From positions 2,272,001 to 2,336,000 of the forward strand of contig CAWFSF010000006.1 of the NCBI GenBank assembly GCA_963818475.1: a stretch of 64,000 nucleotides of DNA. The letters run 5' to 3'. Of this stretch, positions 22,461-41,076 are shown one piece after another. Both the position numbers and the translations under genes were made by a program. Under the pieces are notes generated by a model. The model was given only the letters and a program-made list of their open reading frames with translations, was not told the origin of the DNA and searched no databases. The stretch is from Nitrospirota bacterium (GTDB taxonomy: Bacteria > Nitrospirota > UBA9217). Position 1 is the stretch's first letter. The number at the start of each line of letters is the position of its first letter.

Positions 22461-22510
22461 AAGATGAAGTATAGCGGATTGGCTGGCAGTTTGTCGCCGG
22501 TGTCCAAAAG

Positions 22511-23970
22511 CTAAGCAAGCCAAACCGGCGATCGAGGCCTTGGCGAAATCGAGCAGCTGAGCCGGCAATACGCCGATGTAGATGACGAAGGACGCTGAAA
22601 TTGCCAGCGCCAGCGCCAGCGACGGGGCCCGGGAGATCTCGAATGACCCGACGGGGTCCTTCATATACATGACCATGATAACGCGCAGATAGAAATAGGC
22701 GCTGATCGATGAAAGCAGGACGCCGACAACGGCAAGCCAGACAAGGCCCGCTTGTACGGCTGACTGGAAGATATAGAACTTGCCGACAAAACCGGCTGTC
22801 GGCGGTATGCCCGTGAGCGAGAACATGAAGATCAGCATGAGGAAGGCTGCGGTCTTGTTGGTCTTGCCCAGGCCGGCAAAGTCCGCGATGTCCTCGCCCC
22901 GCTCCCCCGCCTTGCGCAGCATGATCACCACGCCGAAGGCCCCCATGTTCATGAGCGCGTAAATGCAGACGTAGAGCATGACGCTCGCGGCACCGTCGGG
23001 ACCGCCGGCAGCCAGGCCGACGAGTGCATAACCCGCATGGGCAATGGAGGAATAGGCGAGCATGCGTTTGATGTTCGTCTGCGACAAGGCCATGATGTTG
23101 CCCGACAGCCATGGTCAGCACGGCCAGACCCGCCAGGATCGCGGTCGATTGTTCATGGAGCGGCTGGAGCGCATACAGGAAGACCCTGAGCAGCACGGCA
23201 AAACCGGCGACCTTGGGACCGGCGGACATGAACGCCGTGACCGACGTCGGCGCCCCTTCGTATACGTCCGGCACCCACATATGGAATGGCGCTGCAGCCA
23301 CCTTGAATCCGAAGCTCACGACCAGCATGATCATGGACAGCATCAGGACCGGGTTCGTCAGGTCAGCCTTCTGGAGGAACAGCAGGATGCCGGCCAGGTT
23401 CGTGGTGCCCGTGATTCCGTACATCAGCGACATGCCGTACAGCATGATCCCCGACGAGAAGGCGCCCAGGAGCAGATACTTGATAGCCGCTTCATTGGAA
23501 CGGTTGCTGCCCCGCATGAAGCCGGCGAGGACATAGATCGAAAGGGCCATGAGCTCGAGTCCGAGGTACAGCGTGATAAGGTCCCCGGCCGAGGCCATGA
23601 GCATCATGCCGCACGTGGAAAAGAGCATCAGTGCGTAATACTCGCCGCGGTGGATATCCTCTTCTTTAAGGTAATTGATCGAGACGAGGATGCCCAGGCC
23701 GCAGGCGCTGTAAAAAACGAACTTGAAATACGTCGAGAACGGATCGATGAGGAACGTTCCCGAGAACACAGAGCCGGAGGCGCCGATCGCTCCATAGCTC
23801 GCCACGGCGGCAAATGACACGCAGCCGAGACTGAACCATCCGAGGTATCCTTTATATTTCTTGTCCGTGAAAAAATCGAGGATCAACACCAGCAGGCCGC
23901 CGGCAATGATAATGATCTCCGGTGCAAGGGACGTCATGGATTGTGCTATTTCCTGGATCGAGCTGGACAT
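22511..23970 (-). CDS. nuoN: NADH-quinone oxidoreductase subunit N (frameshifts near 23102 and 22520)
   Basis: EAAIKYLLLGA, FKVAAAPFHMWVPDVYEGAPT, NIKRMLAYSSIAHAGY across two frames. Confidence 0.9.
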
Positions 23971-24015
23971 CGATATCTCCTCACAGATTCCACTGGAATA
24001 AAACTCCTGACAAAA

Positions 24016-25556
24016 CTACTTCGCGAGCAGGGAACCCACCGCTTGGGCCATGGCAGGAACGTGCTGGACTTTGGCGTTCACCTGCTGAATAAGATTGGAT
24101 GCGGACATATGGATCATCTGGAGCGCCGCATTCGGATAGAGGCCGATGAAGAAGACCAGTATCACCAGCGGCAACGATGCGGCGATCTCCCGCAGGTTCA
24201 TATCAACAAGATGTTCGTTATGCGGGATTCGTGATCTTGCCGAAGGCCACACGCTGATAGAGCCAGAGCATGTATCCCGCGCCGAGAATGATCCCGAGCG
24301 AGGCGATCACGGCATAGGGCTTATAGTGCATGAACGCGCCGAGCAGGATGGCAAACTCGCCGATGAAGCCGTTCGTGCCCGGCAAGCCGATGGACGAAAA
24401 GGTGATGATCATCAGGAACGTGGCATAGATCGGGACCCTGGCTGCGATGCCGCCGTAGTCGGCGATCACCCGCGTATGGGTCCGTTCGTATATCACACCC
24501 ACGGCAAGGAACAACGCTCCCGTCGAGATGCCGTGGTTCAGCATCTGCAGGATCCCGCCCTCAAGCCCCTGGCTGTTCAGGGCAAAGATGCCGAGGGTGA
24601 CAAAACCCATATGGCTGACGCTCGAGTAGGCAATCAGTTTCTTGAAGTCCGTCTGCGCAAAGGCCATGTAGGCCCCGTAGATGATCGCGATCACCGAAAG
24701 GATCATGATGGCCGGGGTCCAGGCTGAGCGCGGCGTCAGGGAAGAACGGCAGCGAGAACCGGAGGAAGCCGTAGGCGCCCATCTTGATCAGGATGCCGGC
24801 CAGGATGATGCTGCCTGCAGTGGGCGCTTCCACGTGTGCGTCGGGCAGCCAGGTGTGGACCGGGAACATCGGCACCTTGACCGCAAAGGCCGCGAAAAAG
24901 GCAATGAAAGCAAATATCTGGAACGTATAGGTGAACTGGTGGTTCATGATGGCCAGCACATCGAAGGTCTTACCCGCGGCAACGTAAATGGCCATGATGG
25001 CGACGAGCATGAGCACGCTGCCCACGAGAGTGTAGAGAAAGAACTTGATGGCAGCGTAAAGCCGGTTCGGTCCTCCCCAGATGCCGATCAGCAGGTACAT
25101 GGGGATGAGCATGGCTTCCCAGAAGATATAGAACAGGAAAAGGTCAAGCGAGGTAAAGACGCCGATCATAGCCGCTTCAAGGAACAGGATGGCAATCATG
25201 AACTCCCGCACCCGGTCCTGAATGGCGGTCCAGGACACCATGATCGAGATGACCGTCAGGAGGGCTGTCAGCGCCACAAAGAGGATGCTGATGCCGTCAA
25301 CGCCGAGCTTGTAGCTGATGCCCCAGGCGGCGATCCAGGGCAGGTTCTCGCCGAACTGCATGTTCGCGGTCGTCGTGTCAAAATTCGTGAGCAGCGGCAG
25401 ACAGAGCGCAAGATCGATGACCGCGACGCTTACGGCGATCCAGCGTACTGCCGCGGCGTTCCTGACGAACAGCAGGATGAACGAACCGATCACGGGAATG
25501 AAGATCAGGAGGCTCAACAGCGGGTATCCGAGCTGGTTCGGGATCAATTCAAGCAT
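24016..25556 (-). CDS. nuoM: Subunit M (frameshifts near 24715 and 24225)
   Basis: FWEAMLIPMY, KVPMFPVHTWLPDAHVEAPT, KKLIAYSSVSHMG, GLPGTNGFIGE. Confidence 0.92.
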
Positions 25557-25636
25557 GGATCTGACTCCTTTGGCAAATGGATACTGATGTCAACGCAAAC
25601 CACGAGGCATCTGTTTCAATGATAAGCTGCGCCCTG

Positions 25637-27569
25637 CTAACGCAGAACGTAGTACAATCCCACGAGGACCACCAGGCCAAGCGCCATGGTAAATGCATAC
25701 TGCTGCACATAGCCGGTCTGGATCTTCCGGCTTTGCTGGCTCGTCGAACTGATCGCCTGCGCAAGGCCGTTCACTGCACCGTCGATGATTTTGACATCGC
25801 CGATCGTATAGAGAATCTTCGCCAGTTTGTGAACCAGGCCGTCAACAAAAATGTAGTTGTAGATTTCGTCAACCTTATATTTATTAAGGAGCAGCGTGTA
25901 AGCACCCTTGTACTTCTCCGCCCAGTAGGCGGGCCGGGAAGGGTTCTTTACATACCATGCATAGGCGCTTCTGATCCCGGCAAGCGCGACCACGACGGAA
26001 AACACCATCAGGCCAAGCTCGAACCAGTGGCTTTCTGCCGCAGCTGCATGCTCAGCATGCGGAAAGAGCGGTGCGAGAAAATCGCCAAACAGGTTCATGT
26101 GAGGAATGATCGCCCCGGGCATCCCGATCCAGCCGATGACCACGGAGAAAAACGCAAGGATCATGAGCGGGACGGTCATGACCTTCGGCGACTCGTGCAC
26201 ATGGTGCTCGACCTCGTGGTCCATGCGGGATTTTCCGTAGAAGGTCAGGTAGATCAGCCGGAATGAATAGAATGCCGTCATGAAGGCGGCGGCCACGCCG
26301 AGGACCCACAGCCCGCGGCCCAGCGTCGATGCATTGTAAGCGCTCCAGAGGATCTCGTCCTTGCTGAAAAAGCCCGCAAAGGGAAAGATCCCGGCCAGGG
26401 CAAGAGAGCCGATGATGAACACCGCATGGGTGATCTTGATCTTGGACTTGAGCGCGCCCATCTTGCGCATATCCTGCTCGCCCGACAGTGCATGGATCAC
26501 GCTGCCCGAGGCAAGGAACAGGAGCCCCTTGAAGAACGCATGGGTCGTGAGGTGAAAGATGCCTGCCGAGAACGCCCCGACCCCGAGCCCCAGGAACATA
26601 TAGCCGAGCTGACTGATCGTTGAATAGGCGATGACGCGCTTGATGTCATTCTGCACCAGGCCGATGGTCGCGGCAAAGACCGCGGTCAGCCCGCCGACGA
26701 TGGCAACGACATTCATCGCGGTCGGAGAGAGCGAGAAGATCGGCGCACAGCGCGCCACCATGAAGACGCCGGCGGTGACCATGGTCGCCGCATGGATCAG
26801 GGCGCTGACCGGCGTGGGGCCTTCCATGGCGTCCGGGAGCCAGACGTAGAGCGGAAGCTGGGCGGACTTGCCCATGGCTCCCACGAACAATAGCAGCGCG
26901 ATCAGGGTAATCACACTGATCTCTGACCCGAAGAGCAGGTAGTTGAAATTGGCGGCCGGATCGGCAACGGCCTTGAAGACCTCGGCGAAAGTTCAGTGTG
27001 CCGAAGGTGACAAAGATCAGGAGCATGCCGAGCAGGAAGCCGAAGTCGCCTACGCGGTTCACGACAAAGGCCTTGATGCCGGCATCGGAGGCTGATTTTT
27101 TCTCATACCAGAAGCCGATCAGGAGGTAGGAGCAGAGGCCGACCCCTTCCCAGCCCACGAACATGAGCAGGAAGCTGTTGGCCATGACCAGCACCAGCAT
27201 GAAGAAGGTAAAGAGCGCCAAATAGGAGAAGAACCGGGCAAAACCTTTGTCGCCGTGCATATATCCCACGGAGTAGATGTGAATAAGGGAACTGAGCGTG
27301 GTCACGACCAGGAGCATGACCGTGGTCAACTGGTCGATCTGCAGCCCCACATTCACCGAGAGCGTACCGATGGAGATCCAGGAATAGAGGTTCTCATTGA
27401 TGATCGTCCCGCCGAGCACATCGAAGAAGGCGCTCACGGAAAGCACGAACGCCCCGACCACGCCGAGAATGGGGAAGTAGGCGGCCCTCTCCTTCAGGAA
27501 TTTCCCGAACAGACCGGCGATCAGGAAGCCGGCGAAGGGCAGCAGCGGTATCAGTGCATATTTAAGCAT
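25637..27569 (-). CDS. nuoL: Subunit L (frameshift near 26990)
   Basis: GWEGVGLCSYLLIGF, KSAQLPLYVWLPDAMEGPTPVSALIHAATMV. Confidence 0.93.
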
Positions 27570-27586
27570 AATCACCTCTTCGAGGT

Positions 27587-27707
27587 AAATTCCAAACTTC
27601 AATTTCCAAATCTCAAATAAAATCCAAATTTCAAATTCGAATCATAGAACATTTGCCTCTTGGTACTTGGAATTTATTTGTAATTTGGCGCTTGGGCTTT
27701 GGGATTT
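27587..27707. repeat. AT-rich heptamer-based imperfect palindrome (family B)
   Basis: Left arm of (t/c)ccaaat-like units, right arm of ttgg units; aligns with 39554-39684. Confidence 0.75.
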
Positions 27708-27714
27708 CCCGATT

Positions 27715-28017
27715 TTATCCCTTCATGATGTTAAAGTCTTCCACGTGGATACTCCCGCGGTTGCGGGCCAGGAGGATGATGATCGCCAGAGCCACCGCTG
27801 CCTCGGCAGCGGCCACGGTGATGACAAAGATCACGAAGATCTGGCCGGTGAGCGACTGCAGATAGTGCGAGAATGCGACCAGGTTGATGTTCGCCGCATT
27901 CAGCATGAGCTCGATGGACATCAGGACGATGAACACATTGCGGCGGCTCAGCACGCCGACAACACCGATGGTGAACAACCCGGCACTCAGCAGGATATAC
28001 CAGGACAAGGGGATCAT
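27715..28017 (-). CDS. nuoK: Subunit K
   Basis: [27 protein letters not shown]. Confidence 0.95.
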
Positions 28018-28034
28018 GGAAACCTCCGGTTTCC

Positions 28035-28107
28035 ATTGCGGAGGAAGATTGCAGAATTTGGATTGAGATTCAGCAAAAGCCGCAATCCGAAATCCGAAAT
28101 CCGCAAT
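28035..28107. repeat. Degenerate ATTGCGG / CCGCAAT heptamer palindrome (family A)
   Basis: attgcgg...cgcaat ccgaaat ccgaaat ccgcaat. Confidence 0.75.
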
Positions 28108-28115
28108 GTACTTAT

Positions 28116-28626
28116 CTATTCATTCGTTTTCTTCTTCGCCAGCATTACAGCACCCACGAGCCCGACCAGCAGGATGATGGACGCGATCTCGAACGGCACC
28201 AGGTAGTTGGTATACAGTTCAATGCCGAGGGCACCAACCCCGGTACTCGAGACATCGCGCATCGGTTGGCCCGCGTCTGCCGGAAATCTGCCCTTAATGA
28301 CAAGCAATCCGATCTCACCGGCGATCAGCACGCCAAAACCGACGAGCCAGGGCCAGAAACGGTTTGCCCGCAGCGCGGTAGACCTCGCGGTCCACGCTCA
28401 GGAGCATGGCCACGAAGAGGTACAGGATCAGGATGGCCCCGGCATACACGATAAGCTGCACCGCAGCCAGGAACTCCGCGTTCAGCAACACGAATACGCC
28501 TGCAATATGAAAGAAGAGCAGGAGCATGAACATCACGCTATGGATGGGGTTCTTCCGGGTGACCGTGAGGACCGCCGATACGAGGATCACTGCGGCAAAA
28601 TACAGGAAGATAAGTTTATGCGCCAT
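28116..28626 (-). CDS. nuoJ: Subunit J (frameshift near 28330-28380)
   Basis: [40 protein letters not shown]. Confidence 0.9.
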
Positions 28627-29113
28627 TACTTCTTTACCGCCTTTCCGCCCATGTAGTGGTCGCCCACATCGACAAGACGGTCCTTGGTATAGAACGCATC
28701 TTTCCGGTCATAGCAGGCAAGCTCGAACTCGGGGGTCATCAGGATCGCCGAAACAGGGCACGCATCGATGCAGAAACCGCAGAACACGCACCGGAGCAGG
28801 TCAAGTTCGTAGGAGTTCACCACTTTTTCGATGGTCTGGCCCTTCGGACGTCACCACCGTAATGGCCTTGGAAGGACAGACCGCCTCGCAGAGACCGCAG
28901 CCGATGCACGCCGCTGCGCCCTTTTCATCGCGGCGCATGGCATGGAGCCCGCGCGAACCCGGGGATGGGTTTGCGCTTGAAGGCCGGGTACTGCCGCGTC
29001 CTCGCATAGGGTATCATACGTTTTTGACGGGTGAGCATGGTCTTGAGCGTCAGGGCCATGCCCTGTGCGATCTCGATCATGAAGATCGTTTTGAGCAGCT
29101 TTTTATTTTTCAT
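28626..29113 (-). CDS. nuoI: Subunit I (frameshifts near 28958 and 28825)
   Basis: RGLH...[12 protein letters not shown] and [13 protein letters not shown] in adjacent frames. Confidence 0.9.
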
Positions 29114-29154
29114 GTCATTTACTCCTCACTCCGCCCTCGCTCAAACCTCTCCGT

Positions 29155-30242
29155 CTACAGCCAGCCCAGCTGCTTCATACCTGCCGCCACGAGCAGCGTG
29201 CAGAGCGACAAGGGGAGAAAAATCTTCCAGGAAATCTTCATGAGCTGGTCATAACGGTACCGGGGAAGCGTTGCCCGGATCCACATGTAGAAAAAGATGA
29301 AGAAGTACAGCTTTGCCAGCAGCCAGAGCGTCGGGGGCAGGGCCGCGAACATCCGGTTGATGAATGCTATTGAGGTGAGATGGCCAAACGCGGTGTTGGG
29401 AAGAATCTGCACCGGCAGCCAGCCGCCGAGGAACATGATGCTCGCCAGGAGCGAGACCACCATCATGTTCATGTACTCTGCCATGAAGAAGAGGCCGAAG
29501 CGAATGCCGCTGTACTCGGTGAAGTATCCCGCCACGAGCTCGCTCTCTGCCTCGGGCAGGTCGAAAGGAACACGGTTCGTCTCTGCAATGGCCGAAACCA
29601 GATAGAGGAAAAATGCCACCGGGCCCACGGGCAGCGCGATAATGAACCATTGCTTGCTCTGGGCATTCACAATATCGTTCAGGTTCAGCGAGCCGGCCAG
29701 GAGCACCACGGTGAGGATCGCAAAGGCCATGGGGATCTCGTAGCTGATCATCTGGGCTGCGGACCGGAACCCTCCCATGAGGGAATACTTGTTGTTCGAC
29801 GCCCAGCCGGCCATGATGACGCCGTAGGTGCCGATGCTGGCGAACGCGACGATAAAAAGAACACCTACGTTCAGGTTCGACACCCAGAGCGGGACCGTAT
29901 GGGACAGCAGACCGAAAAAGTCGTGGGCGGTCCAAAGGGTATGACCACAAAGGCGCCAAACGCCATGACGAGCATGAGGATCGGCGCAATGCTGAAGACC
30001 CATTTGTCGGCCTTGGCCGGGATGATGTCCTCTTTCATGATGAACTTGACCGCATCGGCGATCGGCTGCAGGATCCCGTGCCAGCCGGTCCGCATCGGGC
30101 CCAGGCGCCCCTGCATATGCGCAAGCACCTTGCGCTCCATGAGCTGCAGATACATCGCATTGGCCAGGATGAAAGCCAGCAGCACCACAATGGGAATGAC
30201 GAGCGTATAGAGGATGTTGAGTACCAGGTTCAGATCAGGCAT
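29155..30242 (-). CDS. nuoH: Subunit H (frameshift near 29925)
   Basis: ERKVLAHMQGRLGP, QPIADAVK, RSAAQMISYE, AETNRVPFDLPEAESELVAG. Confidence 0.93.
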
Positions 30243-30251
30243 GTTCTGCTC

Positions 30252-32427
30252 CTACACTTCGATCTTAATGTGTTTAATGGTCCCGATTTCATGTGACCGC
30301 GTGATCGTCATCCCGGACGAGAACAATTGCTTCTCGGCCGTGATCACTTCCTTCTTCATGATCGTAGCGGATGCCAGCGACAGGTCAACATCCGTTCCGG
30401 CAAGGGGCGACTTGTTCACGCGGCCAGCACGCACCAACGGCAAGACCGGCATACAGCGGTACCGTGGACCGGATCTCCGCAATGATGTCCCGCACGGATC
30501 CATAGGTCAGGGACCCGCCCATCTTCTTCGCAATCTCCGCGAGGATCTCCCAGTCAGGACGCGATTCCCCGTAGGGCTCTTCAGCGCGGTTGATCTGCTG
30601 GAGGCGGCGCTCAAGGTTCGTGAACGTTCCGCTCTTTTCCACATAGCTTGCCGCCGGCAGCACCACATCGGCCATCTGCGCCGTCTCGGTCATAAAAATG
30701 TCCTGCACCACGAGGAAATCGAGCTTCGCAAGCACCGGTTTGAGGCCCGGGTCGCTTCCGATCGGATCGTCGCCCATGATATAGAGGGCATGCAGTTTGC
30801 CGGAGGCCATCGCGTCGACCATCTCCACAGCGTTTTTGCCGGCCGTCTCGGGCAGGACCGCGTTCCAGGAACCGGCAAGCGAGGCCGTCGTATCAGCACT
30901 GACCTTCCGGTATCCGGGATAATAATCCGGAAGCACTCCCATATCGAGCGCACCCTGGAAGTTGCTGCGCCGTACGATGGGATAATAGGTAACATTCTTC
31001 AGAAGACCGGCAAGCTCCTTGATCCGGCTGAAATCCGCGTCCGTGAGCTTCGACGGTACGATGACCGCCACGCTTCCGGCACCTTTCAGGACCGCTGCAG
31101 CATGCTGTGCCTCGCTGCTGCCCTGTCCGGCAGACAACGCCCTGACCAGGTCGCCCAGCGCCGCCTCGGTGCTTTGGGGGATCACGACCGAAGCAAGCTT
31201 GTTGAATTTATTAATTCCGTCGTTCACCAGGACCAGCGTGCGGCCTTTTCGATTGACGGCGCGGACGATCTCAATGCCGGTGAGCGGGTTGATATCGCCG
31301 ACTTCCTTGTCGAGCACCAGGATAACATCGTTAGTGCCCATCTGGCCGAGTTCACCGCTGAAGAACGCCGTATCGAGTCCTTTCGGCGCCTTGAGCCTCG
31401 CCAGCAGATCCACATTGTTCGTGCCCACGATCGTGCGCATGAACTTCTGGAACACATAATGGTCCTCGTTCGTGGTCCGGACGGACCCGAGACCGCCGAT
31501 GCTGTCAGCCCCGCTCTTGCCCTTGATCACGTTGAGGTTCGTGGCCACCACTGCCAGCGCCTCTTCCCAGGTGCAGTCAACGAGCTCATTGCCCACGCGC
31601 ATCTTCGGCGTAGTGAGCCGGTCTTTGTGATGGACCGCGTCCCAGCCGAACCGCCCCTTGGCGCAGAGATAATTGTCCTTCCCCGGGCTCACCCGCATGA
31701 TCCTGCTGTCGCGGGTCTCAAGCGTGGTGGTGCAGCCGCAGCCGCAGTAGTTGCAGACGGATTTCGTCCCCTCCAGGTTCCAGGACCGGGCCTTATACTT
31801 GAACTGGCGCGTCGTGAGCGCTCCCACCGGGCAGATCTCGACGCATTCGCCGCAGAACTCGCAGTCCAGCGGCCGGTCGAAATCGGTGCTGATCCGCGCC
31901 TTGGTGCCGCGGCGGGTGAATGCCCACTCGCCTACGCCGTTCTGTTCATCGCAGATCCTGACGCATTTGCCGCAAAGGATGCAGCGGCTGATATTGCGTT
32001 CGACGATCGGGCTCTCCAGATCAGGCGGGAGGTAGCCCTTTTCAGCATCGAACCTGCTCTGGCCGAGTCCGTACTCATGCACGAGGTCCTGGAGCTGGCA
32101 CTCGCCCGCCTTGTCGCAGACCGGACAGTCGAGGGGATGCTTGATCAGCAGGAGTTCGAGCACCATCTTGCGCGCATTGATGAGCTCGGGCGACGTGGTG
32201 CGGACCACCATGTTGTCGCCGGCCGGCGTGGTGCACGACGGCGTGAACCGGCGCGGCGTTCCCTCCACCTCCACGATGCAGATCCGGCAGGCGCCGAAGG
32301 GATGGAGCTTGTTGTCATGGCACAGGGTGGGCACCCGCGACCCGGCCGCATTAGCAGCCTCGAGGATGGTCGATCCCATGGGCACTTCTACTTTTTTTCC
32401 GTCAACCGTTACTGTTATTTTTTGCAT
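30252..32427 (-). CDS. nuoG: NuoG/BfuA-like subunit: Fe-S domains on a molybdopterin-oxidoreductase scaffold (frameshift near 30415)
   Basis: PTLC...GACRIC...SC; HPLDCPVCDKAGEC; two CxxCxxCxxxC; CNYCGCGC; ADVVLPAASYVEKSGTFTN. Confidence 0.85.
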
Positions 32428-32484
32428 AGGTTTTCTTCTACCTTTGTATGCAACCGCTGTTTTCCGCGGTAAATTTGTCCGCTG

Positions 32485-34293
32485 CTAATCGATCGACCAG
32501 AACCGGCACGCCTTGATGCAGGATTTGCACTTGGTGCACTTTTCAGGATCGATGTATGCAACCTGGCCTTTTTCCCACTTGAGCGCGCCGGTCGGGCAGG
32601 CCTTGAAGCACTGGCCGCACTTCTTGCATTTTGACTGATCTACCACAAACTTGACGAGCGGCGTGCAGACCCTGGCCGGGCAGCGATGCTCCTTGATATG
32701 CGCCTCGTACTCGTCGCGGAAATACTTGATCGTGGTAAGCACGGGGTTGGGCGAGGTCTGACCGAGACCGCACAGCGAGGTGTCCTTGATCTGCTGGGAA
32801 AGATCGAGCAGCAGTTCGATATCGCCTTCACGACCCTCGCCGTTCGTAATGCGCTGCAGAATGGTGAGCAGCGTTTTGTTCCCGATCCGGCAGGGCACGC
32901 ACTTGCCGCAGGACTCGTCCTCGGTGAACTCAAGGAAGAACTTGGCCATGGCCGGCATACAGGTGGTCTCGTCCATCACCACCATGCCGCCTGAGCCCAT
33001 GATCGCACCGGTCTTGTTGATATTCTCGAAGTCCACGGGCGTATCGATGAGCGAACCGGGTATGCAGCCTCCCGACGGGCCGCCCATCTGCACTGCCTTG
33101 AACTTGCGGTTGTTCTTGATACCGCCGCCGATATCATAAATGATGGTCTTGAGCGGCGTGCCCATGGGCACTTCGACAAGCCCGATATTGTTCAAGGCTC
33201 CGGAGAGCGCGAACACCTTGGTGCCTTTGCTCTTCTCGGTCCCCAGGCTCGCGAACCAGTCCGCTCCGTGCAGAATGATCGGCGGTATGTTCGCAAAGGT
33301 CTCGACGTTGTTCAACACCGATGGGCGCTGCCACAAGCCTTTGACGGCCGGGAACGGCGGCTTGGCCCGCGGCATGCCGCGCTTGCCTTCGATCGACGCC
33401 ATGAGCGCCGTTTCTTCTCCGCAGACAAAAGCGCCGGCGCCCTGGTAGATCTCAATATCGAGGTCGAAACCCGTGCCGAGGATGTCCTTACCCAAGAGGC
33501 CGTGGTCCTTGGCCGATTCGATGGCAAGTTGGAGCCGTTGCACTGCCAAGGGATATTCAGCCCTTACATAGATGTACCCGTAATGGGCGTTGATCGCCTT
33601 CGCGGCAATGATCATGCCTTCGAGCACGGAGTGGGGGTCCGCCTCCATGACGCTGCGGTCCATGAACGCGCCCGGGTCACCCTCGTCTCCGTTGCACAGA
33701 ATGTACTTGATATCACCCGAAACACGGGCGCAAAGCTCCCATTTGAGGCCCGTCAAAAAGCCGGCTCCGCCCCTGCCGCGAAGTCCCGATTTCTTCATTT
33801 CGACGACGATCTGCTCCGGCGTCATTTCCGTGAGCGCCTTGGCCGCAGCCATGTAGCCGTCGCGGGCGATGTATTCCTCGATCTTCTCGGCGTCGATGAG
33901 GCTCCGGTTCCTGAGCGCCCGGAGAACCTGGTGCTTGAAGAAGGGGATCTCGTTCATCACCGGGATCGTGTTCTTTTCCGCCGGCGGCGTGTACAGGAAC
34001 TTCTGGACCGGCCGGCCCTTGATGAAATGCTCCTCCACGAGATGCGGCACATCCTCGGGCTTCACCAGCTGATAGAAGATGTCCTCGGGGTAGACCACCA
34101 TCACCGGGCCCTTGGCGCAGAACCCGTTGCACCCGGTCAGCACGATCTTGACCTCCTTCTGGAGGTTACGCTTGATGAGTTCGGTCTCGAGCGCGTCCTT
34201 GACCTTAAGGGATCCGTTTGCAACGCAGCCGGTGCCTGCGCAGATCATTATGTTCGAACGGTATGCAGTCGTTTCCACGATATTACCCCGCAC
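32485..34293 (-). CDS. nuoF: Long NuoF of the HydB/HndC/BfuB type
   Basis: N-terminal CAGTGC...GCNGFC; GLRGRGGAGF; DEGDPGAFMDR; GGPSG; SCGKCVPCR; C-terminal 2x[4Fe-4S]. Confidence 0.92.
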   Translation of the reverse strand: MRGNIVETTAYRSNIMICAGTGCVANGSLKVKDALETELIKRNLQKEVKIVLTGCNGFCAKGPVMVVYPEDIFYQLVKPEDVPHLVEEHFIKGRPVQKFLYTPPAEKNTIPVMNEIPFFKHQVLRALRNRSLIDAEKIEEYIARDGYMAAAKALTEMTPEQIVVEMKKSGLRGRGGAGFLTGLKWELCARVSGDIKYILCNGDEGDPGAFMDRSVMEADPHSVLEGMIIAAKAINAHYGYIYVRAEYPLAVQRLQLAIESAKDHGLLGKDILGTGFDLDIEIYQGAGAFVCGEETALMASIEGKRGMPRAKPPFPAVKGLWQRPSVLNNVETFANIPPIILHGADWFASLGTEKSKGTKVFALSGALNNIGLVEVPMGTPLKTIIYDIGGGIKNNRKFKAVQMGGPSGGCIPGSLIDTPVDFENINKTGAIMGSGGMVVMDETTCMPAMAKFFLEFTEDESCGKCVPCRIGNKTLLTILQRITNGEGREGDIELLLDLSQQIKDTSLCGLGQTSPNPVLTTIKYFRDEYEAHIKEHRCPARVCTPLVKFVVDQSKCKKCGQCFKACPTGALKWEKGQVAYIDPEKCTKCKSCIKACRFWSID

Positions 34294-34357
34294 ATGAATT
34301 GTAGGTTCTGTTCTTAGTTACCTGCTCGCTCCTGGTTGTCGAGCGTTTTTTACCTGA

Positions 34358-34735
34358 CTAATAGGTCGTTTCGTGCCCGGCAACCAGGGCGTATTCTTTG
34401 ACCGGCCGGCCCGCAACGACATGCTCGGCGAAGATCTTGCGCATCTTTTCTTCCGTCAGAGCAGTATATTTTATCGGCGGCTCCCCGGTGGTCTCGATGG
34501 TGGTCATCGGTTCCTGGCTGCACAGGCCCGCGCAGCCCGAGGTCGTGATCGCCACGTCCTTCAGATTGGACTTGGCAAGCTCTTCCATGATGGTGTTCAT
34601 GATGCCCCGGGCGCCCGCAGCAATCCCGCAGGTCCCCATATGCACCGTGATCTTGACCCTGAACCCACCCTCGCGAAGCCCTTGATGGTAGTCTTCCTTG
34701 ATCTTTTTTAAATCAGCGATCGTCAGCTTTGCCAT
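34358..34735 (-). CDS. Thioredoxin-like [2Fe-2S] ferredoxin (HndB/HydD type)
   Basis: VHMGTCGIAAGA, TSGCAGLCSQEP, EHVVAGRPV. Confidence 0.88.
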   Translation of the reverse strand: MAKLTIADLKKIKEDYHQGLREGGFRVKITVHMGTCGIAAGARGIMNTIMEELAKSNLKDVAITTSGCAGLCSQEPMTTIETTGEPPIKYTALTEEKMRKIFAEHVVAGRPVKEYALVAGHETTY

Positions 34736-34750
34736 ATACCCCCCATAGGG

Positions 34751-34835
34751 GAAATCCTAAATTCGAATACCGAAATACTAAACGTTTCAGTTGTTTCGAT
34801 ATTATTTAGAATTTCGTATTTCGCATTTCGAAATT
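34751..34835. repeat. CGAAAT / ATTTCG heptamer imperfect palindrome
   Basis: gaaat cctaaat tcgaata ccgaaat...aatttcg tatttcg catttcg. Confidence 0.7.
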
Positions 34836-34838
34836 GCC

Positions 34839-35348
34839 CTAGTCGTATTTCTTAATAATGTCCATTACCTTCGTGGCCGCCACATCGCCGTAGGTGTCCT
34901 GCCCGATGACCACAACCGGTGCGAGGCCGCATGCGCCGAGGCACCGCACTGCCTCGAGGGAATACTTCTTGTCCCGGGTGATCTCGCCGACTTCGAGGTC
35001 CAGTTCAGCCTTGATCTTTTCGATGATCTCCTCGCTTCGTTTCACGTAGCAGGCGGTCCCGAGGCAGACCCGGATCACGTGCTTGCCGCGCGGGACCAGG
35101 GTGAAGTAGGAATAGAAGGTGGCCACGCCGAAGACCACGCTGGGAGACATGTTCATGCCTTTCGCGATATAGCGCTGCACGATATGCGGGAGATACCCGC
35201 AGATCTCCTGCGCCTGCTGCAGTACGGGAATCAGCGAACCGGGCTTGTCCTTGTACTTTTCAATGATCACGTCGATCTTCCGGTACATCTCGGGCAAGAT
35301 GACCTCATTGTTTGTGGCAGTATGTTCTGCTGCTTCTGTACTCATCAT
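34839..35348 (-). CDS. nuoE: NuoE/HydC/HndA [2Fe-2S] subunit
   Basis: LIPVLQQAQ, GVATFY, VCLGTACYV, RCLGACGLAPV. Confidence 0.92.
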   Translation of the reverse strand: MMSTEAAEHTATNNEVILPEMYRKIDVIIEKYKDKPGSLIPVLQQAQEICGYLPHIVQRYIAKGMNMSPSVVFGVATFYSYFTLVPRGKHVIRVCLGTACYVKRSEEIIEKIKAELDLEVGEITRDKKYSLEAVRCLGACGLAPVVVIGQDTYGDVAATKVMDIIKKYD

Positions 35349-35381
35349 TAACCTCTTCGACTCACCTGATGAATTTTTCTT

Positions 35382-35912
35382 TCAGATCCTCATACCGTGC
35401 TGCAGCATGCCCCTGAGTGCTTCGAATACCGCCGGGCTGTTGATCGGCACATCGTCGAGCTCGTTCTTTATCTCCCGGGTGTCAAGCCGGAAGACCTCAC
35501 CGTCCACGCGTTCTTCGTAGACCATATCCAGCTCAGGATGGCCCGCAATGATCGTCAGCAGGGTATCTGCCATGGCGCCCATCTTGGGCCGGTCAATGTT
35601 GCTCCACTGGAACGTGACCGTTACCCGGGTGCCGCTGTTCGGCGCTGAGTCGATCGTCAGGCCGCCGCCTGCCTGCTCCGCTGCCTGGGCCAGAAGCGGA
35701 ATTCCGAGACCTGTTTTCTTATGTTTCGTCGAAAAAAAAGGGTTCCGGACCCTTGCCAGCGTCTCGGCATCCATCCCTCTTCCGTTATCAATCACCAGTA
35801 TCTGCAGAAGGTCCTGAGCACTGTCCCTGTTGGCCAGTATTTCAATTCTTGTCGCGCCAGCCCGAAGCGAGTTCTCTGCAATATCGAGGATATGGAGCGA
35901 AATTTCTTCCAT
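35382..35912 (-). CDS. Stand-alone HATPase_c (histidine-kinase-like ATPase)
   Basis: MEEISLHILDIAENS, DNGRGM, PFFSTK, GLGIPLL, NIDRPKMG. Confidence 0.85.
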   Translation of the reverse strand: MEEISLHILDIAENSLRAGATRIEILANRDSAQDLLQILVIDNGRGMDAETLARVRNPFFSTKHKKTGLGIPLLAQAAEQAGGGLTIDSAPNSGTRVTVTFQWSNIDRPKMGAMADTLLTIIAGHPELDMVYEERVDGEVFRLDTREIKNELDDVPINSPAVFEALRGMLQHGMRI

Positions 35913-35916
35913 TACC

Positions 35917-36663
35917 TCAGTACTCAGCCTTCCTGCCATCTTTTCCGGCAAGGGCCTTTTTGATCTCGGCAACCGTGCCCTCTTCCAGCAAAAAGGATGT
36001 AAACCGCTTCCCCATATCTGCAGGGCTGTGAGCATCCGAACTCGTGACCATTGGATACTTCGCGCAATCAGGGAATCGTTTTCGAGCCTCGACAATGTTC
36101 GAGTTTGCCGATACCTCCACCGCATCCAGAACCAGCGTATCAGGGATGAACCCAAGCTGTCCGATAATGCTGAAGGATTCCCGGTCAACATGAGCAGCTA
36201 TTACAAGGCTGTCACCCTTTGCCGCCCGGGCTTTAGCAACGATCGCTTCTGCGGGCAGCGATGTAGCTCCGATCAGAAGCCGCTCACAAAAGCCGGTTAC
36301 TCCATCCTCGTCGTCAGCGATCACCTGCAGTCCAAAGGAGTGACCGTCATTTTTTCCGGCAAGGTGTTGGTAAACAAACTTCTGGAAATCCAGGAGATCG
36401 TCGTCATCATCAAAGAACACCAGGATGTGCGCTTCCTCGGAAGAAGTGACTTCCATCCCGCCGAGAACAATCAACCCGTTGCGGAGCCCGGCTTTTTTCA
36501 CGGCAATGACGTTTTCAGCCGAGTTATGGTCACACACACCGATCAGGTCGATCCCCTTCTCGATGGCAGCGCTCACGACCTCCCTCGGTGACATGTCAAG
36601 ACCGGAGCAGGGAGACAGGCAGGTGTGTACATGAAGATCGGCCTTAAAGCGCCTCAGCGCCAC
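35917..36663 (-). CDS. PHP-domain phosphoesterase
   Basis: DLHVHTCLSPC, CDHNS, AAHVDR, SSDAH. Confidence 0.9.
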   Translation of the reverse strand: MALRRFKADLHVHTCLSPCSGLDMSPREVVSAAIEKGIDLIGVCDHNSAENVIAVKKAGLRNGLIVLGGMEVTSSEEAHILVFFDDDDDLLDFQKFVYQHLAGKNDGHSFGLQVIADDEDGVTGFCERLLIGATSLPAEAIVAKARAAKGDSLVIAAHVDRESFSIIGQLGFIPDTLVLDAVEVSANSNIVEARKRFPDCAKYPMVTSSDAHSPADMGKRFTSFLLEEGTVAEIKKALAGKDGRKAEY

Positions 36664-36994
36664 GGATACCTGCCTTATACAATCTGCCCACCAGTTCGAA
36701 CGCCGAAAGGTTGCTCACCATGATCGGAATGCCTTCTACCTCGGCCTTGGCGATCGTATCCTGGTCCGGGACCCTGCCCTGTATCAGAATGATGCCCGAC
36801 AGCCCCGTATGTGCTGCCACGGCCACAATGTTGTGGTGGATATGGAGCGTGACCCATAGGTTCCCGTCCTCGGCGTGGGCCAGGACGTCCGACAGGAGGT
36901 CGCTCACGTACCCGCCGGTCACCTCGTTATCAAGATGCCCTGCGCCGGTTTTGACGGTCAAGCCGAACTCCGCTACCAGGTCACGTAGTTTCAT
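36644..36994 (-). CDS. DRTGG-domain protein
   Basis: GGYVSDLLSDVL, LWVT..HHNIVAVA, SAFELVGRLY. Confidence 0.85.
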   Translation of the reverse strand: MKLRDLVAEFGLTVKTGAGHLDNEVTGGYVSDLLSDVLAHAEDGNLWVTLHIHHNIVAVAAHTGLSGIILIQGRVPDQDTIAKAEVEGIPIMVSNLSAFELVGRLYKAGIRGAEAL

Positions 36995-37004
36995 TGGTCT
37001 CCGG

Positions 37005-37961
37005 TCAACTCGTATAATAGAACTGCATGGTCAGATGAGTTCCCTCGGGCACCGATGATACGAGGTTCATCTCATCGGCGCATTTTTTCATGTTCGCCAG
37101 CCCCATGCCGGCGCCGAACCCTAATTCCCGCACCCAGTCCGGCGCTGTGGAAAAACCGGGCTGCAATGCTTTTTCGACATCGGGTATTCCGGGCCCGGTG
37201 TCGATCGCCTCCACCGTAACCCCCCACTTTTCCACCTGGGCACGGATCACACCGCCCTTGGTATATGAAGCGAGATTTATCTCTGCTTCGTACGTGGCAA
37301 CCCCGATCCTCCTGAGGAGAGGCGGGCAGACACCCAGTTTTTTGAGAGCATTCTTGAGTTCGCTCGCCGCCTTACCGGCGTCCTTCAGTGTCTGACCAAT
37401 AATATTGTATTTAAATGTGAAGCTGATTTCGTCCGCAGTCACATCCTCAAAGAACTTCCGCATGGTCGGACGCTGACGCGTCAGGGCAGCCTTTGATTCC
37501 GACTGCTCGTATTCGACCTCAAGTTTCTTCAACAGGCCTTCGACAATACTCCCCTTCGTGACGATGCCGACCAGCTCATTGTCCCGGTTCAAAACGGGGT
37601 ACCGCCGGTAACCGAATTTGGAGAACTTTGCTATGCAGTGAACAAGCAATTCATCAGCATAGAGACACTCAACCTTTGTTTTCATTCTCTCCCGGATGGG
37701 AGCATTGATCGCGTTGTCGGTCAGTGCGTTGATCAGATCTTCTATGCTGATCATGCCGACGAGCTTTCCATTCTCCACAACCGGTGTGCCGGACAGCCGG
37801 TTGTCACGCAAGAGGATCCTGAGCTCCGACATGGTCTGCTCAGGCCCTACGGTGACCATCGTCGGGGGCATGACCTCGCCGACGGTAAGCTCGTAGACCA
37901 TCTCCTGGGTCTTGGTCAACCGGTCCAGTGTTCCCTGATCTTTACCTTGCGATGCAATCAC
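37005..37961 (-). CDS. CBS-pair fused to an RsbT-like (anti-sigma-type) Ser/Thr kinase
   Basis: Two CBS repeats (GTPVVENGKLVGMIS; RYPVLNRDNELVGIVT), then YEAEIN, DTGPGIPD, GFSTAPDWVRELGFGAGMGL. Confidence 0.88.
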   Translation of the reverse strand: MIASQGKDQGTLDRLTKTQEMVYELTVGEVMPPTMVTVGPEQTMSELRILLRDNRLSGTPVVENGKLVGMISIEDLINALTDNAINAPIRERMKTKVECLYADELLVHCIAKFSKFGYRRYPVLNRDNELVGIVTKGSIVEGLLKKLEVEYEQSESKAALTRQRPTMRKFFEDVTADEISFTFKYNIIGQTLKDAGKAASELKNALKKLGVCPPLLRRIGVATYEAEINLASYTKGGVIRAQVEKWGVTVEAIDTGPGIPDVEKALQPGFSTAPDWVRELGFGAGMGLANMKKCADEMNLVSSVPEGTHLTMQFYYTS

Positions 37962-37962
37962 G

Positions 37963-38319
37963 TTATTGCCGTTCGTCTACCCCTCTGAGCCCGCTCGTGT
38001 ACAAGATGCCGCAGGCCTCGAACATGGACAACCTCGTAATGAAGAGAGGAATCTCTTTTTGCTTTGCCAGTGCCACGGTTTCCGCTTCAGGTCGCTTCCC
38101 GCGCACTACACAAACCGCTTTGATATCGGCGATATCAGCGGTCCGTACTGCCTGGGGGTTCGTGATCCCCGTGATCAGAATGCCATTCGCGTGCATACGA
38201 CCGAGCACATCGCTCATAAGATCGGCGCTGAAACAGCTATCCACTTCAATTTCGCTTATAAGGCCGCTCCCGGCAAGGACCTCAGCGTTCAAAAGCGTGA
38301 CGATCTCTTTCAAATTCAT
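37963..38319 (-). CDS. DRTGG-domain protein
   Basis: ADLMSDVL, ITGITNPQAVRTA, VRGKRP, SMFEACGILY. Confidence 0.85.
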   Translation of the reverse strand: MNLKEIVTLLNAEVLAGSGLISEIEVDSCFSADLMSDVLGRMHANGILITGITNPQAVRTADIADIKAVCVVRGKRPEAETVALAKQKEIPLFITRLSMFEACGILYTSGLRGVDERQ

Positions 38320-38337
38320 GCCGCGTTCCTCAGCCAC

Positions 38338-39537
38338 TTACCGGTCAACCTCACCCAGCACGATGTCGATGGTCCCGATGCATGAGATAACATCGGCCAC
38401 CATATGGCCGGTCACCATCTTCGAAAGGGCGCTCACGTGCACATACGAGGGGGCGCGGATCTTGATGCGGTAGGGCCGGCCGCTGCCGTCGCTTACTATA
38501 TAGAACCCGAGTTCGCCCTTCGGCGCCTCGGTCGCCACGTAGACCTCGCCCTTGGGCATGGGGACCCACTTGCTCATGAGCACGAACTGGTGGGCCAGCG
38601 ATTCCATGTTTTTCATGACGTTCATTTTCTCGGGAATGGCGTACCGCGGGTCCGGGGTCACCACCGGACCGGGCGGCATCATATCGAGGCACTGTTTGAT
38701 GATCCGGTTGCTCTGGCGCATCTCATTGATGCGCACGATGTACCGGTCGTAGACATCGCCGTTCTTTCCGAGCGGCACGTCGAAATCAACCTTATCGTAG
38801 GCCGCATAGGGTTCGACCTTGCGCAGATCGTAGTTCACGCCGGAACCGCGGAGCGTACCGCCCGTCAGGCCGTAGTTGACCGCATCCTTGGCCGAGAACA
38901 CGCCAATGCCCACGGTGCGCTGGAGCCAGATGCGATTTTGCCGGATCAGCGTATCGTACTCTTCAAGCCGTTTGGGGAAGATCTCGGTGAATTCACGGCA
39001 CTTATCAATGAAATCACGCGGTATATCGTTGCGTACGCCGCCGATGCGAACATAGCTCACGGTCTGGCGTGCTCCCGTCACCATCTCGGTAAGGTCGAGG
39101 ATAAGCTCCCGTTCCCGCAGCGTATACATGCAGACCGTCATGGCACCGATGTCAAGGGCATGGGTGCCAAGCCACACCAGATGGCCCGAAAGCCGCGTCA
39201 GCTCCGCCATCAGCGTTCTGATGAACTGCGCCCGCTCCGGGACCTCGATGTTGGCAAGCTTCTCGACGGCAACCACGTACCCGAGGTTATTGTTCATGCA
39301 GGTGATATATTCCAGCCGGTCAGTCATGGGGATGATCTGATGGTAGGTCCTGCTCTCCATCCACTTTTCGATCCCGCGGTGGAGATACCCGGGGCGGGCG
39401 TCGCAGCCTACCACGGTCTCGCCCTGCAGGTCGAGCACCAGGCGCAGCACGCCGTGGGTGGCCGGATGCTGCGGCCCCATGTTGAGCGTTATTTCTTTCT
39501 GGACTATTTCTTTTTCTGTCGTCTCTGTCGCTGACAT
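38338..39537 (-). CDS. nuoD: Subunit D
   Basis: NMGPQHPATHGVLRL, GYLHRGIEK, DRLEY, EAPKGELG, DIVLGEVDR; no Ni-binding CxxC. Confidence 0.95.
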   Translation of the reverse strand: MSATETTEKEIVQKEITLNMGPQHPATHGVLRLVLDLQGETVVGCDARPGYLHRGIEKWMESRTYHQIIPMTDRLEYITCMNNNLGYVVAVEKLANIEVPERAQFIRTLMAELTRLSGHLVWLGTHALDIGAMTVCMYTLRERELILDLTEMVTGARQTVSYVRIGGVRNDIPRDFIDKCREFTEIFPKRLEEYDTLIRQNRIWLQRTVGIGVFSAKDAVNYGLTGGTLRGSGVNYDLRKVEPYAAYDKVDFDVPLGKNGDVYDRYIVRINEMRQSNRIIKQCLDMMPPGPVVTPDPRYAIPEKMNVMKNMESLAHQFVLMSKWVPMPKGEVYVATEAPKGELGFYIVSDGSGRPYRIKIRAPSYVHVSALSKMVTGHMVADVISCIGTIDIVLGEVDR

Positions 39538-39553
39538 AGTGTCACCATCTGAT

Positions 39554-39684
39554 AAAATTCCAATTTTCAAATCCCAAATCTCAAATACTATCCAAATTTA
39601 AAATTCCAATTTTCAAAGTGTTTGTATTTTGATGCTTGCAATTTGGAATGTATTTGTCATTTGGTGCTTGAAGTTTGGTGCTTG
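39554..39684. repeat. AT-rich heptamer-based imperfect palindrome (family B)
   Basis: aaattccaa ttttcaa atcccaaatctcaaata...ttggaatgtatttgtcatttggtgcttg. Confidence 0.75.
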
Positions 39685-39690
39685 TCGTTA

Positions 39691-40161
39691 TCAGTATCCT
39701 TTCAGCGGATATTCCTTCCGGAGCGGATGCCCTTCCCAGTCCTCGGGCAGCAGGATCCGGCGAAGGTCGGGATGGCCGTCGAACTTGATCCCCATGAGAT
39801 CGAAGGTCTCGCGTTCGTGCCAGTTGGCTGTTTGCCAGACCGACGACACCGTGTCGATCCGCGGGTCCTCTTCCGGCACACGCACCTTCAAACGGATGCG
39901 GTGGCGGTACTCGATAGAGATAAGGTTATAAACGACTTCGAAGCGGAGACCGGTGTCACCCGGATAGGTCGAGTAATCGACGGCCGTCAGGTCGGCCAAG
40001 TGGTCCATCTGGAGGGAGGGTTCATCTTTGAGGTACAGACAGATGTCCCGGATCCTGTCTTTTTTGACCATGATCGAGACCTGACCTGCAAAGGTCGTCG
40101 TATCCAGGACCTGACCGGCGAATTTTTCTTCTACCATCTTAGCGATCTGTAAGGGATCCAT
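39691..40161 (-). CDS. nuoC: Subunit C
   Basis: ANWHERETFDLMGIKFDGHPDLRRILLPEDWEGHPLRKEYP. Confidence 0.95.
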   Translation of the reverse strand: MDPLQIAKMVEEKFAGQVLDTTTFAGQVSIMVKKDRIRDICLYLKDEPSLQMDHLADLTAVDYSTYPGDTGLRFEVVYNLISIEYRHRIRLKVRVPEEDPRIDTVSSVWQTANWHERETFDLMGIKFDGHPDLRRILLPEDWEGHPLRKEYPLKGY

Positions 40162-40231
40162 ACAACCTCGTCACGGTCCGCACCGCGCAAAAGGTCCGCG
40201 GTGCTCGGTTTCGATCAGGATATTTGGTGTA

Positions 40232-40711
40232 TTACTTCCGGATATAGTGCTCTTTCTTGATCTTCTCTTGCAGTTTGATGATGCCGTTCATCAGGGCCTC
40301 AGGACGCGGCGGGCAGCCCGGTATGTAGACGTCAACGGGAATGATATTGTCAACGCCCTGCACCACGGCGTAGGTATTAAAGATGCCGCCGGAACCGGCG
40401 CAGCTTCCCATGGCGATGACATACCGCGGTTCGGGCATCTGGTCATAGACGCGGCGCACGATGGGTGCCATCTTTTTCGAAAGCGTACCGGCTACCAGGA
40501 GCAGGTCGGACTGCCGGGGAGACGGACGGGGTACGGTGCCGAAGCGGTCGAAGTCGTGCTGGGGAGCGGAATAATACTGGATCATTTCAATGGCGCAGCA
40601 GGCGAGGCCGAACGTCATGGGCCAGATGGAGCTTGCACGGCAGTAATTGAGAAAACCATCGACGGTGGTCGTGATATACCCGTCCTCAAAAAGATTCTGG
40701 ACTACTCCCAT
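40232..40711 (-). CDS. nuoB: Subunit B
   Basis: [34 protein letters not shown]. Confidence 0.95.
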
Positions 40712-41076
40712 TCGAGCGCCCCTTTCTTCCACGCGTAGAAATACCCGACAAGCAGGATGATGATGAAGATCACCATCTCCACAAAGCCGTAGAGACCGAT
40801 CTGGTTGTACGACACTGCCCAGGGATAGAGGAATACGGCTTCAATATCGAAGATAAGGAACAGCATGGCGATGATGTAGTAACGGATGGAGAACTTCTGA
40901 TTGGCGTCCATGAAGGGAGTGATGCCGGACTCGTAGGTCAGCAGCTTTTCGGGATAGGGGTTCCGCGGACGGATGAACCATCCGGCAACCAGCATGCCGA
41001 CGCCGACAGCAGTACCGAGCAACAGGAATATTGCTACGGGCAAAAAGTGTTCTGGAAGATAGGTACTTGGTGTCAT
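40702..41076 (-). CDS. nuoA: Subunit A
   Basis: [28 protein letters not shown]. Confidence 0.95.

Follow-up and report, generated by a model that had tools for sequence, protein, structure and literature searches.

The 64,000-nucleotide stretch of DNA analyzed here (the window; positions 2,272,001 to 2,336,000 of contig CAWFSF010000006.1, assembly GCA_963818475.1, Nitrospirota bacterium) carries a nuoA-N operon for respiratory complex I in which the usual input subunits NuoEFG give way to a head of the type found in the Bfu family of electron-bifurcating enzymes. Judging from its genes and cofactor ligands, the operon would encode a complex I with Bfu-type input, a reversible confurcating enzyme that takes electrons from reduced nicotinamide adenine dinucleotide (NADH) and ferredoxin together and delivers them to menaquinone, a reading that we put a little above even. 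Sequence, synteny, and trees support the core of the original prediction, a Bfu-type complex I coupling NAD(H), ferredoxin, and quinone, but as a prediction it is not new. Schut et al. (2022; PMC9304861) named the class Nuo-Bfu, predicted it to be a type 3 Bfu, and listed 51 sequences, including Nitrospirae and Geobacter; theirs is the sole paper found with this term in the literature searched, outside which most subscription papers lie. Its accessible text gives as predicted reaction the joint oxidation of NADH and reduced ferredoxin with menaquinone as acceptor and argues for the forward direction. The operon family described here is distinguished from the published type by a HydD-like gene, a five-gene cassette, a BfuB ancestry unlike that of Geobacter, and the exchange of the head with canonical NuoEF within one family.

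A Bfu-type head in a nuoA-N operon

The architecture originally proposed for NuoF could be placed residue by residue: a thioredoxin-like N-terminal site (C18/C23/C55/C59), the NADH-site motif DEGDPGAFM at residues 203 to 211 (with A209 and M211), KVFAL at 359, GGPSG at 404 to 408, and a C-terminal 2x[4Fe-4S] domain (C556 to C596). The flavin mononucleotide (FMN)-site motif GAFVCGEE carries F289, the B1 ligands are C462/C465/C468/C508, and alignment to the solved chain 7t2r_B gives C445/T483/H532/C538/C543 as B2 ligands. Domain matches are PF01512, PF10531 (below cut-off), PF10589, and PF00037, with PF01257 in E, the BfuC gene of the cluster. Schut et al. define the Bfu family by ligand sets B1 to B5, B2 being C438, H525, C531, and C536 in Acetomicrobium mobile, with C476 often replaced by Thr, and NuoF has both the domain set and all five ligand sets, including the B2 Cys and His. 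Bifurcating beta subunits are described as having Ala or Glu plus Met where NADH binds, a Phe in place of Tyr close to FMN, and GGPSG (Losey et al. 2020, PMC7311640, in the text accessible to us), and NuoF has all of these as A209, M211, F289, and residues 404 to 408. The Phe/Tyr site was matched through Suppl. Fig. 10 of Schut et al., not through Losey residue number 367; KVFAL was dropped for this purpose and the GAFVCGEE site tested instead.

This architecture is typical of HydB/BfuB and unlike canonical NuoF, as had been claimed. The nine best PDB matches of NuoF are all Bfu/HydB chains (850 to 673 bits, 7t2r_B at the top), while the best canonical NuoF among solved chains, T. thermophilus Nqo1, reaches 388 bits, and the score against TIGR01959 (nuoF) is 502.6, under the cut-off of 558.65. 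The closest named relatives, at 92 to 99% identity, are Nitrospirota/Nitrospirae genome bins. A search of 63 other genomes of the family returned 44 matches at E <= 1e-245, 42 of them with at least 76% identity; two, at 66% and in a longer frame, were excluded, and the 42 matches plus the window make up the 43 family loci (L028 to L030, possible duplicates of sampled genomes, are uncounted). In the 39 full-length family copies (38 loci), the B5, B1, and B2 His/Cys ligands are always conserved (39/39), the B3B4 ligands nearly so (38/39), and GAFM and GGPSG are kept in 37, as is the Phe of GAFVCGEE. None of 20 short NuoF proteins has B5, the B2 His, B3B4, GAFM, or GGPSG, and 18 of them have Tyr. 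A canonical complex I NuoF, which is short, lacks B2 to B5, and has Tyr in GAYICGEE, is ruled out here by the long form, the extra ligands, and the Phe. Three copies stand apart: genome G095 (L134) has two tandem BfuB copies in its operon, one of them without GAFM and GGPSG; the sole copy of G189 (L135) lacks both motifs; and a long nuo-linked BfuB at L018:10222-12075 has Tyr instead of Phe in the FMN-site motif. The motif loss in G095 and G189 may reflect lost NADH binding or coupling.

The remainder of the operon is that of a complex I. The full set nuoA-D plus nuoH-N was found, so the complete operon claimed earlier stands as to gene content, but G, H, I, J, L, M, and N carry indels as assembled. 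As originally stated, NuoD is of the quinone type (TIGR01962, 569.9 bits against a cut-off of 459.35) with no CxxC; lacking the Ni-binding CxxC pairs, it rules out a group 4 [NiFe] hydrogenase of the Mbh-Bfu kind. NuoG, the sole G of the operon, has five Fe-S ligand sets and, in the alignment, LARLK where Fdh has CARVCH. A formate dehydrogenase (Fdh-Bfu) is ruled out by the missing Mo/W-ligand Cys/Sec-His motif, and a NiFe hydrogenase was rejected for want of its ligands. In canonical NuoG, a His-ligated cluster leads to NuoI. With five sets of Fe-S ligands and none for Mo, the NuoG of this operon likely has NuoI as its outlet, just as a complex I does. The replacement of NuoEFG by four genes holds for the four genes themselves, but five further genes lie between nuoD and nuoE, so that the replaced block comprises eight genes plus G. 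This arrangement recurs: 34 of the 36 family loci that extend to nuoD have the order D-cassette-E-HydD-F, the other two (G009 and G235) have D, a cyclic nucleotide monophosphate (cNMP)-binding protein, e, short f, cassette, E, HydD, F, and the cassette is present in all 36. The order F-G-H occurs in 37 of 37 loci that extend to nuoH, and in the window nuoH starts 9 nucleotides past the nuoG stop.

How does the operon compare with known systems? With the Geobacter type of Nuo-Bfu it shares BfuABC in the middle of nuoA-N, a quinone-type NuoD, the B1 to B4 ligands, GAFM, GAFVCGEE, GGPSG, and a menaquinone-using host, and it has what Schut et al. take as diagnostic in their accessible text: BfuABC replacing NuoEFG in a full nuoA-N set and a BfuA with a full Fe-S set but no catalytic site. 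Their Nuo-Bfu has 14 subunits only, whereas six extra genes (the HydD-like gene and the five of the cassette) lie in this operon, and the available text of that paper makes no mention of BfuD, DRTGG, or a kinase. Geobacter-type loci run ABCD-E-F-G-H..N without HydD-like gene or cassette, none of 12 has the four-Cys B5 pattern found in 39 of 39 family copies, and their BfuB is 53 to 57% identical to that of the family. Among soluble enzymes, NiFe-HydABCSL of A. mobile (7t2r) is the best solved match and shares the B2 ligands, with Thr for C476; hisK and hydD genes lie beside its cluster as well (PMC9304861). Tetrameric HydABCD/Hnd hydrogenases are comparable too: in Bacillota (L062, L066, L069, L086 to L088), clusters of this sort are flanked by DRTGG, CBS-kinase, PHP, and HATPase genes. 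Unlike both, the operon has no NiFe or H-cluster module, and its outlet would lead through NuoG to a quinone module and membrane arm. With canonical Nuo/Nqo (E. coli, T. thermophilus) it shares NuoA-D, H-N, and a NuoG with the His-ligated cluster, but its NuoF is extended by Fe-S domains at both the N and the C terminus and does not have the residues typical of non-bifurcating forms.

Exchange and ancestry of the head

The same NuoG and membrane arm are paired with a Bfu head in 41 genomes, with canonical NuoEF in 10, and with both in one operon in 2. A search with NuoG found matches in 55 of the 63 family genomes. Ten genomes without a close BfuB have a nuo operon in which this G follows a canonical short NuoF (G011, G013, G014, G105, G117, G128, G132, G170, G199, and, on a short contig, G252). 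Eight Bfu-headed genomes have a separate block of cNMP protein, e, f, and G (G002, G012, G016, G077, G089, G173, G179, and G212), and G218 has this block alone. The G proteins of Bfu-headed operons, canonical-headed operons, and separate blocks form one clade (support 100), and trees that hold the Bfu-partnered G apart with soluble A subunits are rejected (p 2.5e-31). NuoD, NuoH, and NuoL of both operon kinds likewise group in a single family clade, separate from Geobacter and Syntrophales, with NuoD and NuoL nested among Nitrospirota (99). A stand-alone cNMP-binding protein gene (PF00027) accompanies canonical nuoEF, both in operons and in orphan blocks (L017, L154, L156, L157 to L159, L175, and L177 to L180).

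In a NuoABCD tree of 29 of 34 Bfu loci, 2 dual loci, 8 of 10 canonical loci, and 4 outgroups, a single clade of canonical-headed operons is rejected (p 0.00015), and at least 4 state changes are needed. The order D-(cNMP)-e-f is probably the older state, since it occurs in other Nitrospirota families too (L033, L162, and L165). The simplest account would have an ancestor with both heads, from which one head was lost repeatedly. A bolder reading, to which we give a distinctly minor chance, would be a single chassis of NuoG, quinone module, and membrane arm with two interchangeable heads, one for plain NADH and one confurcating NADH with ferredoxin; the cassette, together with a cNMP-binding protein for the plain head, would set which head works, and so alter how much energy each electron pair yields or make the pump a ferredoxin reductase driven by proton motive force (pmf).

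Where did the Bfu head come from? Checked by phylogeny, NuoF groups with soluble Bfu enzymes. The BfuB of the family forms a clade (100) whose sister group (99) is the Nitrospirota BfuB of soluble clusters, and the Geobacter-type copies and the cassette-free Nitrospirota Nuo-Bfu (L018/L021) are placed elsewhere in the tree. Schut et al. assign Nuo-Bfu BfuB to clade 38 (sequences from Deferribacteres and Proteobacteria) and clade 39 (sequences from Planctomycetes and Nitrospirae), with 26 and 16 sequences counted in their Suppl. Fig. 6, leaving 9 of the 51 outside. The family groups neither with Geobacter (clade 38) nor with L018/L021. The soluble Nitrospirota BfuABCD clusters (L012, L031, and L138 to L147), which hold the sister BfuB (66 to 73% identity), have the HydD-like gene in most cases and cassette genes in many, but they differ in an A subunit of about 820 residues, in response regulators and often fdhD, and in having no in-line nuo genes. 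In L012, the one A subunit read, there is no Mo-ligand Cys. A single origin of all Nuo-linked BfuB is rejected at p 0.038, or p 0.026 without Syntrophales, in quick trees without a mixture model. Most likely, a soluble tetrameric Bfu cluster was the source of the head, which would have entered as a block of eight genes behind the native nuoEF; one head or the other would then have been lost repeatedly. In L031, L033, L034, and L261, a soluble Bfu cluster and a canonical nuoABCD operon stand back to back, and this placement could have favored insertion.

The idea that the arrangement is unique to this family was rejected: among 80 metagenome loci from a search with a Syntrophales BfuB, a count by eye gave 36 with in-line nuo genes and a long NuoF. 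Most of these 36 have the HydD-like gene and cassette genes, in at least 4 other gene orders; cassette-bearing nuo operons are therefore a wider subtype reaching beyond this family. In nuo operons of other lineages, the cassette is split around nuoABCD or trimmed (L041, L043, L187 to L222, L227 to L237, and L242).

Energetics and competing explanations

In characterized Bfu enzymes, NAD and ferredoxin act as co-donors or co-acceptors, and the third substrate is reached via BfuA (PMC9304861, accessible text). By analogy, NADH and reduced ferredoxin would be oxidized together at BfuBC, electrons would pass from NuoG to NuoI, NuoB, and menaquinone, and the membrane arm would pump protons. The head is inferred to dock on NuoBCDI through NuoG, and strict NADH/ferredoxin coupling, menaquinone as acceptor, and direction are likewise parts of the model. 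Calculated from the potentials in Schut Table 1, electron transfer to menaquinone yields 206 mV with NADH alone, at most 2.75 H+/2e at 150 mV, against 316 mV and about 4.2 H+/2e with NADH plus ferredoxin, so the addition of ferredoxin would pay for four protons. Pumping four H+ per 2e would give the quinone an effective potential of -374 mV at a pmf of 150 mV (-314 to -434 mV for 120 to 180 mV); since this lies between NAD and ferredoxin, quinone would fit the role of third substrate. Of two reactions offered earlier as examples, pmf-driven reverse electron flow fits this wiring, but NADH oxidation with reduction of both ferredoxin and quinone does not, NAD and ferredoxin being on the same side. 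The genome has futalosine-pathway menaquinone genes, including MqnA-family genes, as well as two 2-oxoacid:ferredoxin oxidoreductases, Rnf, NiFe hydrogenases, and heme-copper oxidases; a search of the genome (91% complete) found no [FeFe] hydrogenase.

Several points weigh against this reading and against the history proposed for the head. No assay of any Nuo-Bfu was found in the literature searched, so that the statement that no such enzyme has been characterized holds there, and bifurcation is predicted from motifs by analogy to soluble enzymes. The same chassis carries canonical NuoEF in ten family genomes, so the Bfu head is dispensable, and two genomes of one genus have a BfuB copy lacking GAFM and GGPSG, as described above. 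The genome also has Rnf and two other BfuABC clusters, so its ferredoxin balance does not need this enzyme; it has a second, canonical nuo operon; and the membrane-arm genes are frameshifted as assembled. As for history, the rejection of a single Nuo-linked BfuB origin is modest, and the trees allow an origin shared with the Syntrophales-type copies (p 0.32). NuoG tests reject neither an origin with soluble BfuA (p 0.48) nor one with other Nitrospirota NuoG (p 0.23), so the order of head insertion is unproven, and G was no longer taken with certainty to be the native NuoG.

The alternative that survives best, though we give it a distinctly minor chance, is that the same enzyme runs in reverse, with pmf driving menaquinol oxidation and the head splitting electrons to NAD+ and ferredoxin for carbon fixation. 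The effective quinone potentials given above would place the reaction near equilibrium, the genome has CO dehydrogenase, ferredoxin oxidoreductases, NiFe hydrogenases, oxidases, and what we take to be an acetyl-CoA synthase-like cluster, and the second complex I could handle forward NADH oxidation. Reduced ferredoxin could, however, come from Rnf and group 4-like hydrogenase clusters, and the head is replaced by canonical NuoEF in relatives; the arguments of Schut et al. for the forward direction also count against this alternative. Another explanation, which we consider unlikely, would have the head act as an NADH (or ferredoxin-only) dehydrogenase that is loosely coupled or does not bifurcate and has retained its additional clusters, making the complex an ordinary NADH:menaquinone pump with added regulation. 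Its interchange with canonical NuoEF on the same NuoG, the degenerate copies in G095 and G189, and the lack of any assay in the literature searched would all suit such a head. Yet all tested bifurcation markers are kept at 89 to 99% identity across most of the family, characterized non-bifurcating homologues lack B2 to B5 (PMC9304861, accessible text), and the fact that 2 genomes keep both heads in a single operon and 8 keep them in trans suggests different jobs.

Two further explanations are very improbable. NADH as mid-potential donor, bifurcating to ferredoxin and quinone as EtfABCX does, would be thermodynamically possible, with quinone above NADH and ferredoxin below (Schut Table 1), but the Bfu mechanism has the third substrate as mid-potential partner via BfuA (PMC9304861, accessible text), and little energy would be left for proton pumping. 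A soluble Bfu enzyme merely located in the operon, or an operon decaying in this strain, might be read from the closest BfuB relatives being soluble enzymes and from about a dozen one-base indels in G and H-N (none in A-F; NuoG breaks at about 30414, leaving an open frame of 680 residues against 723 in a relative), but the invariant F-G-H order and the short G-H gap argue otherwise, the relatives' versions of the genes are intact, contigs of four public runs lack four of the listed insertions, and frame changes also turn up in 15 of 50 unrelated genes taken from across the genome, although not in rpoB and gyrB. The indels are likely assembly errors, and a pseudogene reading was judged unlikely.

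The family bears on the question whether a complex I of any kind can couple ferredoxin, NAD(H), and quinone. It amounts to a natural experiment, in which one NuoG and membrane arm go with a Bfu head, a canonical head, or both, and it permits a head-swap test of whether confurcation enables four-proton pumping by a menaquinone complex I or, run backward, ferredoxin reduction. The class is already in print, the sampled hosts are genome bins, and cultured Geobacter would be easier for the basic reaction.

HydD-like protein, cassette, and surrounding genes

The HydD/HndB-like ferredoxin of the original prediction is there as a HydD/HndB-like thioredoxin-fold gene, but the 125-residue protein has three Cys, with His where the first ligand is expected. 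It may for this reason hold no cluster; His plus three Cys are found in 56 of 75 scored homologues. When BfuB, BfuC, and the HydD-like protein were modeled together, the HydD-like protein scored 0.65 against 0.01 for the best control, by a mark that 116 of 157 solved pairs and 2 of 215 mismatched pairs attain. Contact runs through its N-terminal helix, the runs agree in at least 81% of contacts, and the predicted local distance difference test score of the partner is at least 75. It is thus predicted to bind BfuB, a result that may reflect its likeness to the N-terminal domains of solved BfuB chains. In A. mobile, the hydD and hisK products are not part of the holoenzyme (PMC9304861, accessible text).

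The cassette (35382 to 38319, between nuoD and nuoE) consists of DRTGG, CBS plus HATPase_c_2, DRTGG, PHP, and HATPase_c genes with gaps of -20 to 33 nucleotides (Table 1). Kinase and phosphatase genes reportedly occur near multimeric hydrogenases. The kinase/phosphoesterase cassette is tied to the BfuBC core, not to hydrogen chemistry. Its domain types suggest that it likely controls or assembles the Bfu head in response to adenine nucleotides and phosphorylation, the weakest step of our argument. No description of such a DRTGG/CBS-kinase/PHP/HATPase cassette was found in the literature searched, including the accessible parts of PMC6085437, PMC11406978, and PMC4453560.

Table 1. Genes of the nuo operon in the window, all on the minus strand, from about 22500 to 41076
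Feature	Positions	Strand	Basis and remarks
nuoA	40702..41076	-	PF00507
nuoB, N2 cluster subunit	40232..40732	-	PF01058, TIGR01957 above cut-off
nuoC	39691..40161	-	PF00329
nuoD, quinone-site type, without Ni-binding CxxC	38338..39537	-	TIGR01962 above cut-off
Stand-alone DRTGG-domain protein 1 (cassette)	37963..38319	-	PF07085; conserved position
CBS pair fused to anti-sigma-type kinase/ATPase domain (cassette)	37005..37961	-	PF00571 x2, PF13581; weak TIGR01925 spIIAB
Stand-alone DRTGG-domain protein 2 (cassette)	36644..36994	-	PF07085 below cut-off; 29% identity with DRTGG 1
PHP-family phosphoesterase (cassette)	35917..36663	-	PF02811, PF13263
Stand-alone HATPase_c, histidine-kinase-like ATPase domain, 176 aa (cassette)	35382..35912	-	PF02518
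BfuC/NuoE-like [2Fe-2S] subunit, 169 aa	34839..35348	-	PF01257
HydD/HndB-like thioredoxin-fold protein, 125 aa, three Cys	34358..34735	-	predicted BfuB binder
BfuB/long NuoF, 602 aa, FMN and B1-B5 ligand sets	32485..34293	-	
NuoG/BfuA-like, five Fe-S ligand sets, no Mo-ligand Cys	30252..32427	-	one-base insertion near 30414
nuoH	29155..30242	-	PF00146; one frameshift in assembly
nuoI, nuoJ, nuoK	27715..29112, upper end approximate	-	tblastn matches to intact proteins of relatives; assembly frameshifts in I and J
nuoL, nuoM, nuoN	22500..27569, lower end approximate	-	several one-base indels in assembly

A promoter and terminator scan of 22000 to 41900 gave nothing usable (promoter-like sites, 11 where 10.1 are expected; terminator-like sites, 23 where 16.6 +/- 4.3 are expected). 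Contigs of relatives fall in 30 of 30 bins in two RNA libraries, and on two contigs nuoD is joined to DRTGG 1; such contigs are proof of neither transcription nor a single transcript. None of the public sequencing runs held more than 0.20 of the query words, and no habitat was assigned.

Elsewhere in the genome, the second, canonical nuo operon (L001, G000:C6:306000-325999) has a short NuoF, is distant from the Bfu-headed operon in all trees, and is frameshifted in the assembly. One further BfuABC cluster (L002, G000:C6:2056000-2075999) is followed by a CO dehydrogenase-family gene, with presumably dsrAB-like genes nearby; the other (L003, G000:C2:345000-364999) follows genes that we take to be acetyl-CoA synthase-like. 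Within the window, glutamate synthase-like genes at 14856 to 20025 are split by domain, one of them fused to a pyridine nucleotide oxidoreductase, and a SufBD-core plus ABC ATPase pair at 48087 to 49740 has an apparent second copy 10 kilobases off at 58544 to 59747.

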